DNA from: Pseudoclavibacter sp.
GTDB taxonomy: Bacteria; Actinomycetota; Actinomycetes; Actinomycetales; Microbacteriaceae
Reading direction: 5' to 3'
Length of the DNA stretch: 64,000 nucleotides
NCBI GenBank assembly: GCA_052099095.1
Contig: JBQDTF010000008.1
Coordinates: forward strand, 26,164 to 90,163
Part shown: positions 42,139-62,138 of the stretch, piece after piece
How the letters are laid out: each line of letters opens with the position of its first letter
How positions within the stretch are numbered: the stretch's first letter is position 1
The notes under the pieces: model-generated
Databases searched by the model: none
Told to the model about the DNA's origin: nothing
Seen by the model: only the letters and a program-made list of their open reading frames with translations
Program-made: the position numbers and the translations under genes

Positions 42139-43872
42139 TCAGACGTTTTCTCCACCACTCGAAAGTCCATCGATCTGGTCAAGCACTGCCTCAGTTATCT
42201 CTCTGCAACGTGTGGCGTTCTTGAATAGGCTGGCGAGGTAGTTCTCGGCGAATTTCTGTGCGACTACTTGGATCACTACGACGTAAGCAAGTTCCGTTGC
42301 CTTGCCGAGATCCTTCAATGCAGTTTGGAACTGTGATTCGTCTCCCCCGATGATGCCGTGGCCCAGGGACCGGAAAGCGAGGTGTGCAATCAGGCGATTG
42401 CCATGAATGCCAATAAGTTTCTCACGTCCGTCGAGGCCAGAACGAGTCTCGGCGATTGACTCATCGATGACGCGTAGGCACTGGACCGCGTGCCACAATG
42501 TCGTCTCTGAGAGGGCCGAGTTGAACAGCTGTCGATACTGGCTACCGGGCTTGGGGGTCTCTGCGCCCGCCCATAGGCGGCCCACTTCTCGTTTGGCCTG
42601 AACTGCATACTCAGGGTCACGTTGGGCGCAGGCCAGTGCAAGCGTCGCCTCTTGGACCGTGAATCCAGATGTGCGCGTAGGTGCCTCTGATCCACTTTTG
42701 ATCGCATAGGTGATGCCTTCTAAAGCAAGGGCAGACGCCAAGCGCTCTTGTTCGGGGTCGAGGGAAACAAAGTCCCGTCGTTCAACGCGATTTTGAGTGT
42801 TCGTGCCACGAGTGACTTCAGCAGCGAATCCGGGAGGACAGTTCTCCAGAGAGATGAAACGCACTGTGACGCGTGCGTCAGCAACGGTTTCGGGGTTTTC
42901 TTTCGCAAGTTCGCCAATACTACCCACTGTTTGAGCACCGTTGACCACAGAAACCTCGCGGAACTCGAAGTGGCCACTCTTGCGCGTATTCGCGCCCAAG
43001 GCCTTTTTTCCAATGGAATTGCAGAGGACCGTAATTCCGTTGTTGAAGAACCAGAAGTGTTGCGGGTCCTCTTGCAGTGTTTGCCTGATCGAGTCGTTCA
43101 CTTCTGAGTCGGCTCCGAGAAATTGTCTGATGTTGTCGTCGAAAAGACGTACGCCGTTCTGGTGATACCAGGATGCGACTTGGGATGCCTCGACTTGCCC
43201 ATAGAAAGCCTGGTAAGGCTCGTTTACCGAGCCCCAGTCGTAGATGTCTGCCGCGATGTTCGGTCGCGGACCGGACGCTGTCTGCCGAAGTAGAGTGTGA
43301 ATCTCAGCTTGAGAGTAAGTCGAGAAGGAGACTGTCTCGATTGGATCATTCATGTCCCCAAGGAGATTCCTAATTATCGTTTCCGCTTCATTGGATACCT
43401 TTTGAGTGCCGGTGTATGCCAGAACCAGTACGATCCTCAAATCAACGTCTTCCAAGGATCGTTCGATGTCAGAACGATGGTTCCTCATCTTAGCGTTGAA
43501 GCTATCCCAGTTAGCATTCACCAGGTCCCGGACGCCTTGTACGAACTTGTGGACCTCGCCAAGCGCAGGGGCTTTGGTGCCTCCTTTAGTCCATTTGGTT
43601 TGCACTATGTGTATGGTCTTGGCGTCGTGATCTGTCCACACAGCGTCGATGCCGTTGTCACCAAAACCATCTGTGACAGCGCCGGCCGCCTTCTGATCAG
43701 TGATGCCGCAGAGGCGGACCAGCATCCAGGCGGCCAGGCCACGCGTAAGTCGAGCGTCCTCAAGGTTCTCGGGTTTGACATCCGTCAAGTCCACTAGCGA
43801 TCCAACACTGGATCGAATGTTCTTGCTGATTTGGTTTAGTTGCACGTCTCCCATGGTGAGCAGAATACCCAC
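42139..43872 (-). CDS. AIPR-family abortive-infection/phage-resistance protein
   Basis: N-terminal GDNGIDAVW...IHIVQTKW (PD-(D/E)xK-like D...QxK) and FWFFNNGITVLCNS block remembered as typical of AIPR (PF10592). Gene is markedly AT-shifted versus its neighbours. Confidence 0.65.
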   Translation of the reverse strand: MGILLTMGDVQLNQISKNIRSSVGSLVDLTDVKPENLEDARLTRGLAAWMLVRLCGITDQKAAGAVTDGFGDNGIDAVWTDHDAKTIHIVQTKWTKGGTKAPALGEVHKFVQGVRDLVNANWDSFNAKMRNHRSDIERSLEDVDLRIVLVLAYTGTQKVSNEAETIIRNLLGDMNDPIETVSFSTYSQAEIHTLLRQTASGPRPNIAADIYDWGSVNEPYQAFYGQVEASQVASWYHQNGVRLFDDNIRQFLGADSEVNDSIRQTLQEDPQHFWFFNNGITVLCNSIGKKALGANTRKSGHFEFREVSVVNGAQTVGSIGELAKENPETVADARVTVRFISLENCPPGFAAEVTRGTNTQNRVERRDFVSLDPEQERLASALALEGITYAIKSGSEAPTRTSGFTVQEATLALACAQRDPEYAVQAKREVGRLWAGAETPKPGSQYRQLFNSALSETTLWHAVQCLRVIDESIAETRSGLDGREKLIGIHGNRLIAHLAFRSLGHGIIGGDESQFQTALKDLGKATELAYVVVIQVVAQKFAENYLASLFKNATRCREITEAVLDQIDGLSSGGENV

Positions 43873-45543: not shown

Positions 45544-46380
45544 TCAGGGGTGGATGGTTGGTGGAGTGCCTGTCGAGCCGAGGCGTTCGTTCGCGCCGCG
45601 CACGACGAAGGCGACGCTGATGAGCGCGAGGACTCCGGCGGCGATGTTGATGATGGCCCCGATCCCGGCGAGGGGGCTGGGGGCGCCGTGGGTGACTGCG
45701 AAGGTGGAGAAGTCCCAGAACCCGTGGAGCAGCATCGGCCAGATCAGGGATCCCGTGACGCGGCGGAGCACGTAGAGGACGGTTCCGGCGAAGAAGGCGA
45801 AGATGACCTGCTGGATGGTGGGGCCGAGGTCTTGGCCTGAGGTCGCGTTCAGCAGGTGCATGCCCGCGAAGAGGGCAGTGCTGATGAGCCACACCCAGAC
45901 TTCGTTGAAGCGGCTGCGGAGCCCGGTGAGGAGGAGTCCTCGGGTGGTGAGTTCTTCGGTGAAACCGACGAGGACGATGACGAAGAGGGCGGCGATGAGG
46001 GCGCCGTCGAAGGCACCCCAGTCGGTGGAGACGATGTTGATGATCAGGGCGACGACCATCAGGATGGGCGCGATGATCGGCCAGCGCGTGCTGCGGTGCT
46101 GGTCGAAGAGCGCGGGCCGCCACCAGCCGAGGAGTGTCGTCGTGATCGCAAGCAGTACGGCGGCGATGATGAGGGAGAGGCCTGCGCCGAAGAACAGGTT
46201 GCTGCCGCTGTCACCGAGCTCGTCGTATCGCACGTTCGAAAATGCCTGGACGGTGTAGACGACGACCAGGTAGCCGACGTAGATCGCCAGGCCGATCCAG
46301 ACCCTTGGGCGAACCTTCAGTGCTTGATCCATGGACGTTTCCTTTTTCGTGAGTGTGGCGTCAACTGCGGAAGTAGGCAT
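45544..46380 (-). CDS. CPBP family intramembrane glutamic endopeptidase (CAAX/Abi)
   Basis: GFTEELTTRG (EExxxR), FAGMHLLN (FxxxH), LLHGFWDF (HxxxD/N). Confidence 0.85.
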   Translation of the reverse strand: MPTSAVDATLTKKETSMDQALKVRPRVWIGLAIYVGYLVVVYTVQAFSNVRYDELGDSGSNLFFGAGLSLIIAAVLLAITTTLLGWWRPALFDQHRSTRWPIIAPILMVVALIINIVSTDWGAFDGALIAALFVIVLVGFTEELTTRGLLLTGLRSRFNEVWVWLISTALFAGMHLLNATSGQDLGPTIQQVIFAFFAGTVLYVLRRVTGSLIWPMLLHGFWDFSTFAVTHGAPSPLAGIGAIINIAAGVLALISVAFVVRGANERLGSTGTPPTIHP

Positions 46381-46809: not shown

Positions 46810-47628
46810 ATGCCCTCACGCGACCAGCAGGAACAGAGCAGTGGACCGATTCCTCGAACTTTCTGGGTTGGAGTCGCGGCTGCTTCCTTCTATGTACTGA
46901 TCGCGGCCGTGGTCGGCAATCTGCTGGATCCTCTTGCGGGTGGCGACGACGCCCTGGATTTCGTCATCGCGACCTGGATCCCGGTCGCCGTGCTCATCAT
47001 CGTCGGGCTGCTGTTCGCGCGCAGAGCCGGCTGGCTCCGCGAGGCCTGGAGTGCATCGTCGCCCTTCGTCGAACGGCGACGGTGGTGGTTGCTTGCCATT
47101 CCGGTTGTGTTGGTAGTGCAGATCATCCTCATACTTGTCGATGTGCCTTGGTCGGAGCGGGCGGTGCCGGTTGTGCTGATCTACCTCGTGGGCTCCCTGC
47201 TGATCGGGATCGGTGAGGAGTTCTATTTCCGGGGCATCTTCCGAATCGCGATGCGTGGTCACCACGGCGAGCTTGCTGCCTTGCTGGTCACTTCGATGGC
47301 GTTCGGGCTTGCTCACACGGTCGGGTACTTCTTCAACGGGGTTCCCATCGGCGCAACCGCGCTGAGTGTTGCTTTTCTCGCAATGAACGGTGCGCTCTTC
47401 TACGGGGCACTCCGAGCGACCGGAACGCTCTGGGTTCCCATCCTGCTCCACGGGCTCGGCGATTTCGCCCGTTTCATGCAGAGCGGCGGTGACGCGCACG
47501 AGGAAGCCCAAGGGCTGAGTGGAGATGCCGGGACGGCGGTCGTGGAGTACGTGCTCATCGGACTCTCCATCGCGCTCGTGATCAGCGTCGCGCGCGGCGA
47601 GCGCCGTTCGGCACCGGTCGTTCGATGA
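46810..47628 (+). CDS. CPBP family intramembrane glutamic endopeptidase (second, divergent copy)
   Basis: GIGEEFYFRG, FGLAHTV, LLHGLGDF. Confidence 0.85.
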   Translation: MPSRDQQEQSSGPIPRTFWVGVAAASFYVLIAAVVGNLLDPLAGGDDALDFVIATWIPVAVLIIVGLLFARRAGWLREAWSASSPFVERRRWWLLAIPVVLVVQIILILVDVPWSERAVPVVLIYLVGSLLIGIGEEFYFRGIFRIAMRGHHGELAALLVTSMAFGLAHTVGYFFNGVPIGATALSVAFLAMNGALFYGALRATGTLWVPILLHGLGDFARFMQSGGDAHEEAQGLSGDAGTAVVEYVLIGLSIALVISVARGERRSAPVVR

Positions 47629-58989: not shown

Positions 58990-59023
58990 GTGAGACATCT
59001 CGAAACCCCTGGGTCGTGAGACT
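58990..59023 (+). repeat. R2 repeat, degenerate core-only copy
   Basis: gtgagacatctcgaaacccctgggtcgtgagact. Confidence 0.6.
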
Positions 59024-59197: not shown

Positions 59198-60658
59198 CTA
59201 GTCGAGGAAGTAGGCGTGGGTCTTCGCCTCCGTGTCCAGAACATCTTCGGGCACGACGCCGAGATCGAGCGCCAACTCAGCCGACCCGAGCAGAGCAGAG
59301 CTAAGGTCGGGCGAGAACGACCGATCGAGAACGTCGAGGTAGGCGGACATGCTCGTGTCGAGCTGTTGGATGAGGTCGTCGTATTCGTCTGCGAGAAGTC
59401 CGGCTAGGGCCTGCTGGTCGCGCAGGTAACGCTCGATGAGTGCTGCTTCGCGAGCGGCGAGCGAGTCTTTGACGGCCTTGTACATGATGGTGCCGACGGT
59501 GTTTCCAATGACGGCACCCAGTACGGGCACGGGGATGAGCGCCTGGCCGATGAACGAGGACAAGGCGCTCACAGCGGAGTCCAGGCAGACGAGTTCCGCG
59601 TTCTCGATGAACTCTGTTTCGGTGATCTCGCCTCGACGCAGTTGGTTCGCTTGTTCCGCGATCGCGAAGCTCGCGGTGACGACTGCACTGGCGACCGCTG
59701 CTGAGGTCTTGGTGAAGTTCGTCAGGGAGTAGATGGTGAGGCCGCGCACGCCGCCCTTAACGGAGCCCAGTCCTGTGGCGCCCGCGATGTCGGTCCAATC
59801 TTCTCGTGTGAAGTCCTTGAGCTGTGTCCCTTGGCGGCGCTTCTCGATGACGGCAAGCACGAAGGCGGTCCCGCCTTCGATGGCGGCGGCGGCGAGGGTT
59901 GCTTTCGCGCCTTCCTGCAGGTTCGCGCGGCTCGCTTGCGCGGCGTCTGTGCGGAGGTCCTGGTCGGTGGCGCGGAGGGATTCTTGCTCTGCCTCGAATG
60001 TCTGCTCGTAGGCTCCGCGTTGCGCCTGGCGATAATCGAGTTTGGAGGGCTCGAGGGAGTCGATGTCGACAGCGCCTGGCTCGAAGAAGGCCTGGACCCG
60101 TTTCCAGTCCCTGAAGGATGGGCCGTCGCCGGAACTGTTCAGGAGCTTGCCCGCGTCTTCGGGGCTCATGGCGTGTAGTTGCTGGATTATTTCGAAGTGG
60201 TCTGCCGGGATCTGGTACTTCGCACCGTTCTTGAGGAAGTCCGGGTACTTCTCGAGGTGGTCGGCGATCGCGCCGAGCCCGAGCCGCCCGCCGGCTGCGA
60301 CGAACTTCTGCTGGATCTCGACGCCGTCACGTAGGAGGTCCACCGGTCCGTTGTCGTTGACCCACTGGTACGCGGCTTCGCCACCGACGATCTTGCTTCG
60401 CGCGTTGCTGATACCGACTTCGGCGACCTCGGCGATGAAGCCATGCATACCTTTAGTGCCGCCGCGGTTGGTAGCGATGACCTCGAGATCGATCTTCTTG
60501 ATCGCGGAGTCGAGGGTGAAGAGCGCGTCCTGCAGGTTCAGGTCCTGCTGCCCGAGGGCGTCGAGGAGGGTATCCAGCCGGACTTGGTTGAGGTGACTGA
60601 TCCAGGCGGCGACGGCCTGTTCCTGGTTGCTCTTGACGAGCTTGGGTGCGTCACTCAT
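59198..60658 (-). CDS. Unknown 486-aa protein: soluble N-terminal domain followed by hydrophobic helices (partner B of the two-gene module)
   Basis: ATG 60658 overlaps the upstream stop by 8 nt. Block NRGGTKGMHGFIAEVAEVG. Hydrophobic stretches ATLAAAAIEGGTAFVLAVI, SAAVASAVVTASFAIA, ALSSFIGQALIPVPVLGAVIGNTVGTIMY. No family recognised. Confidence 0.7.
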   Translation of the reverse strand: MSDAPKLVKSNQEQAVAAWISHLNQVRLDTLLDALGQQDLNLQDALFTLDSAIKKIDLEVIATNRGGTKGMHGFIAEVAEVGISNARSKIVGGEAAYQWVNDNGPVDLLRDGVEIQQKFVAAGGRLGLGAIADHLEKYPDFLKNGAKYQIPADHFEIIQQLHAMSPEDAGKLLNSSGDGPSFRDWKRVQAFFEPGAVDIDSLEPSKLDYRQAQRGAYEQTFEAEQESLRATDQDLRTDAAQASRANLQEGAKATLAAAAIEGGTAFVLAVIEKRRQGTQLKDFTREDWTDIAGATGLGSVKGGVRGLTIYSLTNFTKTSAAVASAVVTASFAIAEQANQLRRGEITETEFIENAELVCLDSAVSALSSFIGQALIPVPVLGAVIGNTVGTIMYKAVKDSLAAREAALIERYLRDQQALAGLLADEYDDLIQQLDTSMSAYLDVLDRSFSPDLSSALLGSAELALDLGVVPEDVLDTEAKTHAYFLD

Positions 60659-61664
60659 GGTTGCCGGCGGGAACAATGCGGTGCCCGAGCAGCGCCGCGC
60701 ATGCCATGGTGTTGTTCACCAACGCTGCGAGCTGGGATTGCTGCGTAGTGGTCAGGGCGCGGAAGTCGGCTGCGTAGAACTGCAGAGTGGTGCTGTACGT
60801 CTTGACAAGAAGTTCGCGTATGGATGCAGTTCGTTGGTGGAGGTCACCGATCTGGGCATCCATCGTGCGTACGAGCGCGGTGTTCTGCATCACGGCCTTC
60901 AGCGCTTCTTGTTTCGCTTCCCGATTCTCGAACTTCTTCTTCGCGAACAACGCGATGGAGGTGAGCAGTGCTGCGCCCGCCACGGTCCAGCCGATCGGGC
61001 CGGCGAGAGCGAGGAGCGCGCCGCCAGCGGCGGTGCCTCCCCCGCCTGCGGCGGCTGCTCCCCCACCGAGCCATGCGATAGCTGCGTTGCTCGCGGCGGC
61101 GCCAGAGAGCGTCGAGATCGCGGTTCCGGTGGATGCGGTCCCAAAGGTGGTTGCGACCCACATCGCTGCGGTCGGAGCAACGCTGGCAACCGCGGCCCCT
61201 GCGGTGATGCCCGCCCCGGCCCCAGCAGCTGAAGCTCGAGCGGCTTGGAGGTCACTCTGCGCGAATGCTTCGGCCTCGAGGAACTGCGCTTTGAGGATGT
61301 CGATCTCCTGGAAGTCTGTGTCAAACGACTTCGGGGTATTCGCGACGCTGTTCACCAGGAACTCGACGAGCTCGATCAGGTCTGTCGAACGCTCGCGCTG
61401 GCGCAGGAGGGAGAAACCCTTATCGCTCATCGCAGTGAAGGCCGCGTTGTACTCAGCGATTGCGTCTTCGTACGGGTCCGACTTTGGAGCGTTGAGTTTC
61501 TCAACGGTCTCGACCGTCGCGTCCTTCAGATCTCCAGCCTGCTCAACGAGTTGCACTGATGCGTGGCGCGCGAACTTCCCCAGCCCACCGAATGCCTTCG
61601 AGAGGCCCTCCTTAGCCTCATCCAAGCCGTTCTTGCCATCGTCCGACCTGACTGAGCTGTCCAT
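60651..61664 (-). CDS. Unknown 337-aa protein with a central Gly/Ala/Thr-rich glycine-zipper-like membrane region flanked by helical domains (partner A)
   Basis: ATG 61664. ...AGAGAGITAGAAVASVAPTAAMWVATTFGTASTGTAISTLSGAAASNAAIAWLGGGAAAAGGGGTAAGGALLALAGPIGWTVAGAALLTSIALF... No family recognised. Confidence 0.7.
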   Translation of the reverse strand: MDSSVRSDDGKNGLDEAKEGLSKAFGGLGKFARHASVQLVEQAGDLKDATVETVEKLNAPKSDPYEDAIAEYNAAFTAMSDKGFSLLRQRERSTDLIELVEFLVNSVANTPKSFDTDFQEIDILKAQFLEAEAFAQSDLQAARASAAGAGAGITAGAAVASVAPTAAMWVATTFGTASTGTAISTLSGAAASNAAIAWLGGGAAAAGGGGTAAGGALLALAGPIGWTVAGAALLTSIALFAKKKFENREAKQEALKAVMQNTALVRTMDAQIGDLHQRTASIRELLVKTYSTTLQFYAADFRALTTTQQSQLAALVNNTMACAALLGHRIVPAGNHE

Positions 61665-61871
61665 TCGTGCCTCATGTTCTTTTCGAGTTCGCGTCTGGCA
61701 CGAGCGTAACGAGCGCCCCCGACATTGTGGAAAGCGAGGGCGGCAAACGGACGTTGCCTCGACCGTGAATCGGCCTGAACGGCAACTAGTCCGAGCATGT
61801 GCGGAGAGACGCATGGCTGCGTCAGGCAGAACCTCAAGAGTTGACAGCGCGTTTCGGTCTACGTTGGGGCC

Positions 61872-62138
61872 ATGACTCGCCGCGCATCGAGATTGATCGC
61901 CGCTATCGGCGCATCGGCGGCGCTGGTCGGGGCCGCGACGTCAGTCTTGTTCTTCTTCCAACCGTGGAGAAGATGCTCTTACGAGGACACGTCCGTCGGG
62001 TGCGCGATGTTACCTCTCGATGCCGCGGGCATGGCGGCCGCGTTTGGTGTTGCCGTCGTCGGCGTCGCGGTCTGCGCTTTCGGCATGCTTCACACTCGCC
62101 AGTCGGATACTGCGAGACCTTCGACCCCTGAGGCCTAA
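61872..62138 (+). CDS. Small two-TM membrane protein, divergent from the two-gene module
   Basis: 88 aa. [22 protein letters not shown] and [19 protein letters not shown]. Confidence 0.45.

Follow-up and report, generated by a model that had tools for sequence, protein, structure and literature searches.

The stretch of Pseudoclavibacter sp. DNA analyzed here (the window; 64,000 nt of contig JBQDTF010000008.1, assembly GCA_052099095.1) carries two adjacent genes, A and B, that by sequence make up a copy of the candidate phage defence system PDC-M09 (Table 1). A first-pass annotation of the window described them as two minus-strand open reading frames (ORFs) with an 8-nt overlap, and reading of the sequence confirmed this: the junction letters are ...AAC CAT GAG TGA, and the ATG of B occupies 60658-60656. 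A mechanical list of ORFs gives longer versions of both, starting at TTG 60676 (B) and ATG 61814 (A). The shorter starts were preferred because they agree with end-to-end matches to PADLOC profiles, because a GAGG lies 5 nt before ATG 61664 of gene A, and because the 150-nt extension of A (61665-61814) has a GC content by codon position of 0.60/0.70/0.50, which is not coding-like; the values for A proper are 0.64/0.51/0.74. A plus-strand ORF antisense over gene A (60787-61875, 362 aa; 0.53/0.64/0.69) is a high-GC artefact. Relative to the P. helvolus copy both genes show strong purifying selection (dN/dS is 0.05 in gene A and 0.16 in gene B; dS 0.32-0.38). The locus had been called less GC-rich than the core genes. 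The GC content of A and B (0.63) is indeed below that of other blocks in the window (0.70-0.73), but it equals that of the surrounding 10 kb (0.62-0.65).

To what family do these proteins belong? The first-pass annotation considered them unassignable, which no longer holds, since both are full-length matches to a large catalogued family. In PADLOC-DB, A matches the PDC-M09A profile PDLC04406 (E 6.8e-150, residues 14-333 on profile positions 7-326 of 330) as well as profile PDLC04407 (E 1.9e-82), and B matches the PDC-M09B profile PDLC04408 (E 1.1e-247, 1-486 of 486). The two genes are adjacent, on the same strand and in the order A then B. By these features the locus carries PDC-M09 in complete and self-contained form; it is a typical member of this family, a candidate system against phages or mobile elements, and not a new kind of system. 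PDC stands for "phage defence candidate", a set of 145 single- or multi-gene cassettes (Payne et al. 2024, bioRxiv 10.1101/2024.01.29.577857) that were first found inside BREX, DISARM or type I restriction-modification (RM) loci and then searched for genome-wide; M09 appears in their Table S8 as cassette CAS_00055, FAM_02775>>FAM_02807, with a count of 380. Its defence role is a prediction by guilt-by-embedding, and no PDC was assayed by Payne et al. (bioRxiv 10.1101/2024.01.29.577857). In a later study four of eight PADLOC candidates protected E. coli; M09 was outside those eight. The catalogue entry is thus a label with neither domain annotation nor mechanism, not an explanation. Scans of A and B against Pfam, NCBIfam and PHROGs gave no meaningful match, and in Pfam, NCBIfam and PADLOC neither protein is similar to any known toxin or antitoxin.

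The pairing of the two genes is close to universal. In 79 of 80 genome loci gene A immediately precedes B, the remaining one being a contig of 1.6 kb, and 66 of 87 related loci retain the 8-nt overlap. The same 8-nt overlap is found on Lactococcus plasmids, and Klebsiella copies have a 1-nt overlap. Furthermore, two cluster representatives, P0277 (778 aa) and P0301 (758 aa), are natural A-B fusions that match both the M09A and the M09B profiles. Gene order, overlap and fusions together bear out the earlier proposal that A and B form one translationally coupled unit, evidently expressed from one coupled transcript. The fusions consist of an A-like N-terminal part followed by full B, and the transmembrane (TM) hairpins of their A parts are simpler than the Gly/Ala core seen in A of the window. 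When the ORFs within 6 kb on either side of 88 loci were clustered, no conserved third gene emerged; the commonest neighbour family was present in 6 loci.

The limits of the unit could be read from related genomes. A blastn alignment of the window with P. helvolus DSM 20419 is confined to 59198-61760 (90% identity), and one with Pseudoclavibacter VKM Ac-2867 is confined to 59198-61665 (77% identity). The cassette therefore occupies three contexts in three Pseudoclavibacter genomes, with flanks that are unrelated in all of them, which sets its start about 96 nt upstream of A and its end at the B stop codon. No delimiting inverted or direct repeats and no terminator were found around it. The cassette-borne upstream region is conserved in P. 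helvolus DSM 20419, and its core (ATGTCG...GCTCG.TA) is also conserved in VKM Ac-2867. A scan of this region for the sigma-70 consensus found nothing; a promoter at the TACGCT hexamer is putative.

Occurrence of the family is patchy. Patterns from close relatives gave 176 matches in 185,579 species genomes, in Microbacteriaceae, Micrococcaceae, Nocardiaceae, Propionibacteriaceae and Coriobacteriia on the actinomycetote side and in Clostridia, Lachnospiraceae and Erysipelotrichales on the other. The pair is also borne on 62 plasmids of Rhodococcus, Curtobacterium, Lactococcus, Leptolyngbya and Klebsiella, 46 of which are from Klebsiella; the Lactococcus and Klebsiella pairs match M09A and M09B by profile. 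Phage sequences hold hardly any copies: one small fecal contig among 50,697 phage records and, with a closer alignment as query, three of 2.9 million viral contigs. For B alone there are 1347 relatives among 90%-identity clusters, and a profile search of 1.84 billion representatives found 1044 clusters at E<=1e-3 (counted at 50% identity) and 306 at E<=1e-30. A shorter B subfamily of about 400-415 aa (represented by P0317; PADLOC PDLC04410, 385 positions) keeps the head and the hydrophobic region described below and has lost the last ~80 residues, which form the C-terminal helices. The evidence supports the view that the locus is an accessory, horizontally mobile element.

Protein A was modelled with AlphaFold2 (AF2), as was B, from alignments of 50-53 sequences. 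The model of A (mean predicted local distance difference test score [pLDDT] 55.5) has 60 disordered residues at the start, a helical stalk, a hydrophobic middle that is not modelled, and a second helical stalk; helices 91-130 and 271-320 reach pLDDT 79-91. By hydropathy and composition the middle segment has zero charged residues and a single Asn, and its Gly/Ala/Thr-rich make-up, for which the first-pass annotation had quoted peptides that are present as written, amounts to 34 Ala, 19 Gly and 11 Thr per 101 residues, along with Ser. Among 37 A sequences from Actinomycetota, Clostridia, Lactococcus and Klebsiella this core is about 90% conserved across phyla, and the flanks have 37-50% identity. 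The near-invariant stretch is a hydrophobic motif of 65 residues, AP.AA..VATTFG.ASTGTAIS.LSGAAA.NAALAWLGGGA.AAGGGG.AAG.ALLALAGP(I/V)GW. Conservation of this kind favours a specific, packed structure over a generic anchor. The core had been likened to stacked glycine zippers, and a small-residue hydrophobic core is certainly there, but the term is a loose one: there are three strict GxxxG motifs, and small-xxx-small-xxx-small patterns start at 23 positions versus 15.2 +/- 3.8 in shuffled sequences. What is exceptional in the core is its conservation, not its periodicity.

Both helical halves of A pack together in the model, so that the hydrophobic middle would come back out of the membrane on the side where it goes in. 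In A and in B alike, soluble helical parts lie on either side of a highly conserved hydrophobic segment, a topology that places both soluble halves on one (cytoplasmic) side, with the hairpin in the membrane. The N-termini of both proteins are polar and not signal-peptide-like. The view that both are membrane-associated is supported.

A possible relative of A is the membrane half of bacterial dynamins. The PADLOC LeoBC profile is matched by 34 of the 37 A-family members (best E 5.3e-9), at positions ~306-560 of 601; in the window protein the match covers residues 198-274 and overlaps the hydrophobic core. In LeoB the matched half holds a domain predicted to bind membranes, flanked by the middle domain and the GED (PMC4159319). 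The Klebsiella A protein can be aligned (E 3e-7, block-shuffle z 5.3) with a dynamin family protein of Lactococcus, over the stalk and paddle at the C-terminal end of the latter. Sequence-profile searches of the PDB with A, using close and diverse alignments, returned coiled-coil noise and no match to LeoA, BDLP1 or DynA. Pfam, NCBIfam and a motif scan found no P-loop (Walker A), Dynamin_N or other GTPase match in A or B, and no LeoA-type dynamin partner recurs in the 88 loci. It is plausible but unproven that A is a dynamin-like stalk and paddle that has no GTPase. A Foldseek search of the PDB with the A model gave nothing at E<=1e-3; the top matches were TcdA1, SmhB, AhlB and ClyA, at E 0.4-3, probability <=0.2 and TM <=0.29. 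At such E values the likeness to the ClyA/AhlB/YaxAB bundle is not significant.

Protein B combines a soluble head with a membrane part. Its AF2 model (mean pLDDT 63) has a long N-terminal helix (4-61), a small alpha/beta head (62-205), long helices interrupted by hydrophobic ones (247-394), and a helical C-terminus. The order of elements in the head according to DSSP is H67-90, E97-100, E107-110, E113-116, H128-137 and E148-150, which would fit the alpha-beta-beta-beta-alpha-beta core of PD-(D/E)xK nucleases, although the pLDDT there is 42-48. We examined conservation among 116 diverse relatives with 25-53% identity. Only three columns are invariant: D107, Q116 and K118. E77 is kept in 99% of the relatives and H72 and G73 in >=97%; other head residues conserved at >=90% are G66, N85, H134, Y138, P151 and D153, to which Y209 and Q213 can be added. 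The conserved-looking block that had been quoted for B, NRGGTKGMHGFIAEVAEVG, is present as given. The hydrophobic region has its own set of residues conserved at >=90% (D287, W288, G302, G306, Y310, G371, I375, P376, P378, G381 and G385), including the hairpin motif IPxPxLGxxxG.

In the predicted geometry D107 stands at the start of a strand that leads through a turn of two residues into a return strand bearing Q116 and K118, and E77 lies on the preceding helix. Because Q116 and K118 come back on the strand after the turn, D107, Q116 and K118 would face the same side. PD-(D/E)xK nucleases of the D...QxK type have a Glu on a helix, an Asp on a strand and QxK on the return strand. We infer that E77...D107...Q116-x-K118 in the B head may be a nuclease site of this type, although no search confirmed it. 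The first-pass annotation saw no nuclease motif; that statement is questionable, as this signature had been overlooked. A specific relationship to Mrr was rejected as unsupported: hhalign of the head to E. coli Mrr and to a four-sequence Mrr alignment gave a probability <1%, and the motifs were not aligned.

The membrane parts of the two proteins may be related to each other. In an hhalign comparison of the A and B families the hydrophobic parts align with a probability of 30% and E 5.6e-4, A APTAAMWVATTFG...LAGPIGW being paired with B AAVASAVVTASF...IPVPVLG, and in these parts A and B may be ancient paralogues. The C-terminal hydrophobic helices of B also bear a weak likeness to Tim17/NDUFA11-type four-helix membrane domains (probability up to 0.93, E ~1).

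Table 1. Coordinates of the PDC-M09 cassette in the window and of features within it.
Feature	Position	Strand	Description
Whole cassette	59198..61760	minus	~96 nt upstream + A + B; ends exactly at the B stop codon; 2.56 kb
Gene A (PDC-M09A)	60651..61664	minus	337 aa, ATG 61664
Gene B (PDC-M09B)	59198..60658	minus	486 aa, ATG 60658
A/B overlap	60651..60658	minus	8 nt, ATGAGTGA; A stop onto B start; direct reading
A hydrophobic core	60942..61235	minus	residues 144-241, APTAAMWVATTFGTASTGTAISTLSGAAASNAAIAWLGGG...LAGPIGW; presumed membrane-inserted hairpin/paddle
B head domain	60044..60475	minus	~residues 62-205, predicted alpha-beta-beta-beta-alpha-beta
D107-LLRDGVEI-Q116-Q-K118 codons	60305..60340	minus	putative catalytic beta-hairpin (D...QxK)
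B hydrophobic helices	59477..59920	minus	residues 247-394; AAVASAVVTASF + GQALIPVPVLGAVIGN proline-kinked hairpin; hydropathy
Cassette-borne upstream region	61665..61760	minus	GAGG RBS (ribosome-binding site) 61670-61673; TAnnnT-type -10-like hexamer TACGCT 61703-61708

The company kept by the pair varies. In the window the genes on one side are GntR, GNAT, alpha/beta hydrolase and lipoprotein genes and those on the other are msrB and msrA; no phage genes surround A and B there. In Microbacterium lacticum the pair lies among insertion sequence (IS) elements and Fic and NYN genes, in R. fascians it lies among plasmid partition and resolvase genes, and another copy adjoins a MarR regulator and an MFS transporter. 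The chromosomes of Rhodococcus equi/Prescottella equi carry it immediately downstream of recBCD, with SIMPL, OGG, NfeD/Band_7 and DUF4011-AAA_11/12-MTES_1575 helicase genes following. Klebsiella pneumoniae p298-1 (L093, 7123-9419) and the 45 other Klebsiella plasmids with the pair are large, conjugative and of IncFIB type, and they have a VWA gene and the terZABCDE cluster for tellurite resistance a few kb away from it. On the L. lactis plasmids pSD96_06 (L092, 3819-5846 and 9289-11475) and pDRC3A (L096) it stands between two near-identical inverted genes annotated as dynamin family, one copy of which is without a hydrophobic paddle segment of ~55 aa seen in the other. This dynamin adjacency is limited to one L. 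lactis plasmid lineage. Defence genes are found next to the pair as well. When 144 immediate neighbours in 76 genomes were scanned against PADLOC, the strong matches included PDC-S48 (4), DEDDh (4), PDC-S02 (4), mREase_IV (2) and NERD+UvrD (2) as well as SngC, a type I restriction endonuclease (REase), BrxHI, AbiEi/Eii, PD-Lambda-1 and UzuA. A sizeable minority of PDC-M09 copies thus lie in defence islands.

Some other features of the window had been linked to the locus. The AIPR-family gene is real (42139-43872, minus strand; Pfam E 1e-36), but it is about 15 kb from A and B. The stretch that holds it is the only one of low GC content (0.53-0.56) in the window. Next to it are two genes for Rce1-like/CPBP intramembrane proteases (45544-46380, minus; 46810-47628, plus), and this AIPR/CPBP stretch is probably a separate, horizontally acquired islet. 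The element at 58990-59023 (34 nt), which had been taken for the core of a repeat called R2, is unique in the window at up to three mismatches; it contains an internal direct repeat, CGTGAGAC occurring twice. The small divergent ORF with two predicted TM helices (61872-62138, plus strand, 88 aa) is outside the cassette, is uncalled on the public copy of the contig and has a GC content at second codon positions of 0.61, unlike coding DNA; it is unlikely to be a gene.

What, then, might PDC-M09 do? The best explanation, to which we give a probability of about 0.4, is that the cassette encodes a membrane-embedded A-B defence module with the nuclease-like head of B as its effector. A and B would assemble into a hetero-oligomer in which their conserved hydrophobic hairpins, built of small residues, pack together in the cytoplasmic membrane. 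In it A would be a dynamin-like stalk and membrane paddle, devoid of a GTPase and acting as a scaffold or gate, and B would supply the active head, a small alpha/beta domain whose E...D...QxK site would most likely bind metal and cut nucleic acid. The complex would sit at the inner face of the membrane until some event caused by a phage, such as genome entry or perturbation of the membrane, activated it, and it would then destroy the incoming DNA or kill the cell before the phage matures. The abortive infection or defence role guessed at earlier gains from the cataloguing of PDC-M09 as a candidate and from the defence neighbours seen elsewhere; the context in the window, which consists of ordinary genes, does not speak for it. 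A broader proposal would make PDC-M09 a new immune class, in which a dynamin-paddle-like A that has no GTPase and a distantly paralogous B with a previously unrecognized PD-(D/E)xK-type head watch for phage entry from within the membrane, respond by DNA cutting or a pore, and have been carried horizontally from Actinomycetota of the soil to Clostridia of the gut, to Lactococcus plasmids from dairy and to conjugative plasmids of Klebsiella; taken as a whole we regard this as doubtful.

Several observations weigh against the effector-nuclease module. In the window A and B have housekeeping neighbours, not a defence island, and in Rhodococcus equi the pair is conserved beside recBCD in 39 contigs, which for this species looks like a place in the core genome. 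Defence profiles (type I and IIG RM, AbiEi, mad2/3) are also matched by control genes at 6.5-10 kb from the pair, so that in this crude comparison the immediate neighbours are modestly enriched. Both AF2 models are weak, the strands of the B head having pLDDT 42-48. The head found no match in Pfam, whether sub-domains, a hidden Markov model (HMM) consensus or eight diverse heads were used; PDB sequence-profile searches with close and diverse B alignments returned coiled-coil noise; and Foldseek with B against the PDB and BFVD gave nothing at E<=1e-3. As to the dynamin likeness of A, the block-shuffle z of the window protein versus the Lactococcus dynamin is 0.7, the LeoBC match spans a compositionally biased segment, and hhalign to one dynamin gave a probability of 22%. 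Finally, the term "PDC-M09" occurs in no paper text that we searched, and no experimental report on it was found.

The main rival, which we consider rather unlikely, is an abortive-infection pore: on a signal sensed by the B head, the Gly-rich hairpins of A, together with those of B, would oligomerize into a depolarizing channel, and the head would be a sensor or a regulatory enzyme and not what kills the cell. Such logic resembles that of RexAB (a sensor plus a channel) or of the alpha-pore-forming toxins. Across phyla the core of A is its most conserved part, as is typical of channel helices that pack tightly and unusual for a mere anchor; A has the look of a helical bundle with an inserted hydrophobic tip, and its weak Foldseek matches are to alpha-pore formers; and the Tim17/NDUFA11-like character of the B helices, slight as it is, would fit. 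The candidate status and mobility of PDC-M09 apply equally to this reading. That said, none of the fold matches reaches significance, pLDDT is <50 in the hydrophobic regions of the models, and strict glycine-zipper periodicity is weak. In addition, the invariant D, Q and K of the B head point to retained catalysis that a pure sensor would not need. The holin-like and toxin-immunity readings of the first-pass annotation found no specific support. A holin or lysis cassette was rejected, as the proteins are of 337 and 486 aa (not <150), no phage genes are around them, there is no PHROG match and the family is almost absent from phages; a classical toxin-antitoxin pair was rejected on size, context and the near-absence from phages.

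It is also unlikely, in our view, that the pair has nothing to do with defence and is an accessory membrane complex (a plasmid-stabilizing addiction module, a two-component toxin delivered by contact or in vesicles, or a niche-specific envelope function) that was caught by the embedding approach as a mobile cassette. Candidate status alone settles little, as tested candidates worked in 7/9 and 4/8 cases in two studies and many may fail; the pair is frequent on plasmids, including those of Klebsiella beside the ter operon, many of its neighbours are metabolic genes, and it is very rare in phage genomes. On the other side, A and B are large and unlike the toxins and antitoxins in Pfam, NCBIfam and PADLOC, their polar N-termini do not look like signal peptides, and adjacency to bona fide defence genes is repeated. 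Still less probable is a role in membrane maintenance or remodelling with no cell death, in which relatives of a dynamin pair, lacking the GTPase, would bind damaged or curved membrane and stabilize or reseal it, as has been proposed for Bacillus DynA, and so confer tolerance to stress or phage. In DynA, membrane binding is required for phage protection (PMC12998192). The LeoBC matches in most A proteins, the match of Klebsiella A to a dynamin stalk and paddle, the possible paralogy of A and B in their hydrophobic parts (as in tandem dynamin pairs), the placement between dynamin family genes in L. lactis and the core-like location in R. equi would all suit such a role, but with neither a GTPase nor a P-loop in A or B there is no obvious energy source, the PDB sequence searches gave no LeoA, BDLP1 or DynA, the dynamin adjacency is confined to a single plasmid lineage, and dynamins have nothing that corresponds to the invariant D...QxK head.

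PDC-M09 matters as a large family with no Pfam domain and no solved or confidently predicted structure, carried as a precise 2.5-kb cassette that crosses phyla and reaches clinical Klebsiella and dairy Lactococcus plasmids. Beyond the catalogue entry, what is new here is the D107/Q116/K118 triad in B, the 65-residue motif in A and the natural A-B fusions. If this is a defence system, its membrane-embedded two-protein architecture would be unlike characterized ones, and it would link dynamin-like membrane paddles to immunity with no GTP hydrolysis.

How does the locus compare with known systems? From the PDC-M09 family it shows no structural difference: the profile matches run end to end, and gene order, strand and adjacency are the same. 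The two-component and ClyA-family toxins (AhlB/SmhB, ClyA and YaxAB-type) and lambda RexAB share with it two adjacent genes and a helical bundle with an inserted hydrophobic segment that might switch into the membrane, but no sequence relationship was found and they have no equivalent of the enzymatic-looking head of B. Eleos/LeoBC and the bacterial dynamin-like proteins (PMC4159319; PMC12998192) recall A with its predicted helical stalk and its glycine-rich hydrophobic, presumably membrane-binding tip between helices, and their proteins are likewise paired and co-expressed, as A and B, perhaps paralogues, would be; A and B differ in having no GTPase, P-loop, LeoA partner or match to solved structures, and the B head is unrelated to a GTPase. 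Mrr-type PD-(D/E)xK enzymes resemble B in the helix Glu, the Asp at the start of a strand, the QxK on the next strand and the predicted alpha-beta-beta-beta-alpha-beta order, whereas B and Mrr differ in D-to-Q spacing (9 and 14 residues, respectively). As a functional precedent ShdA of Shield comes closest, a membrane-bound RmuC/PD-(D/E)xK defence nuclease that is believed to be under the control of its attachment to the membrane (PMC10270631). Unlike ShdA, B has no RmuC or other Pfam match, has internal hydrophobic hairpins in place of an N-terminal TM helix and would need its partner A; if the B head is a nuclease, however, the logic would be the same, with a cytoplasmic domain of restriction-endonuclease fold held at the inner membrane and perhaps switched on by what happens to the membrane in an infection.

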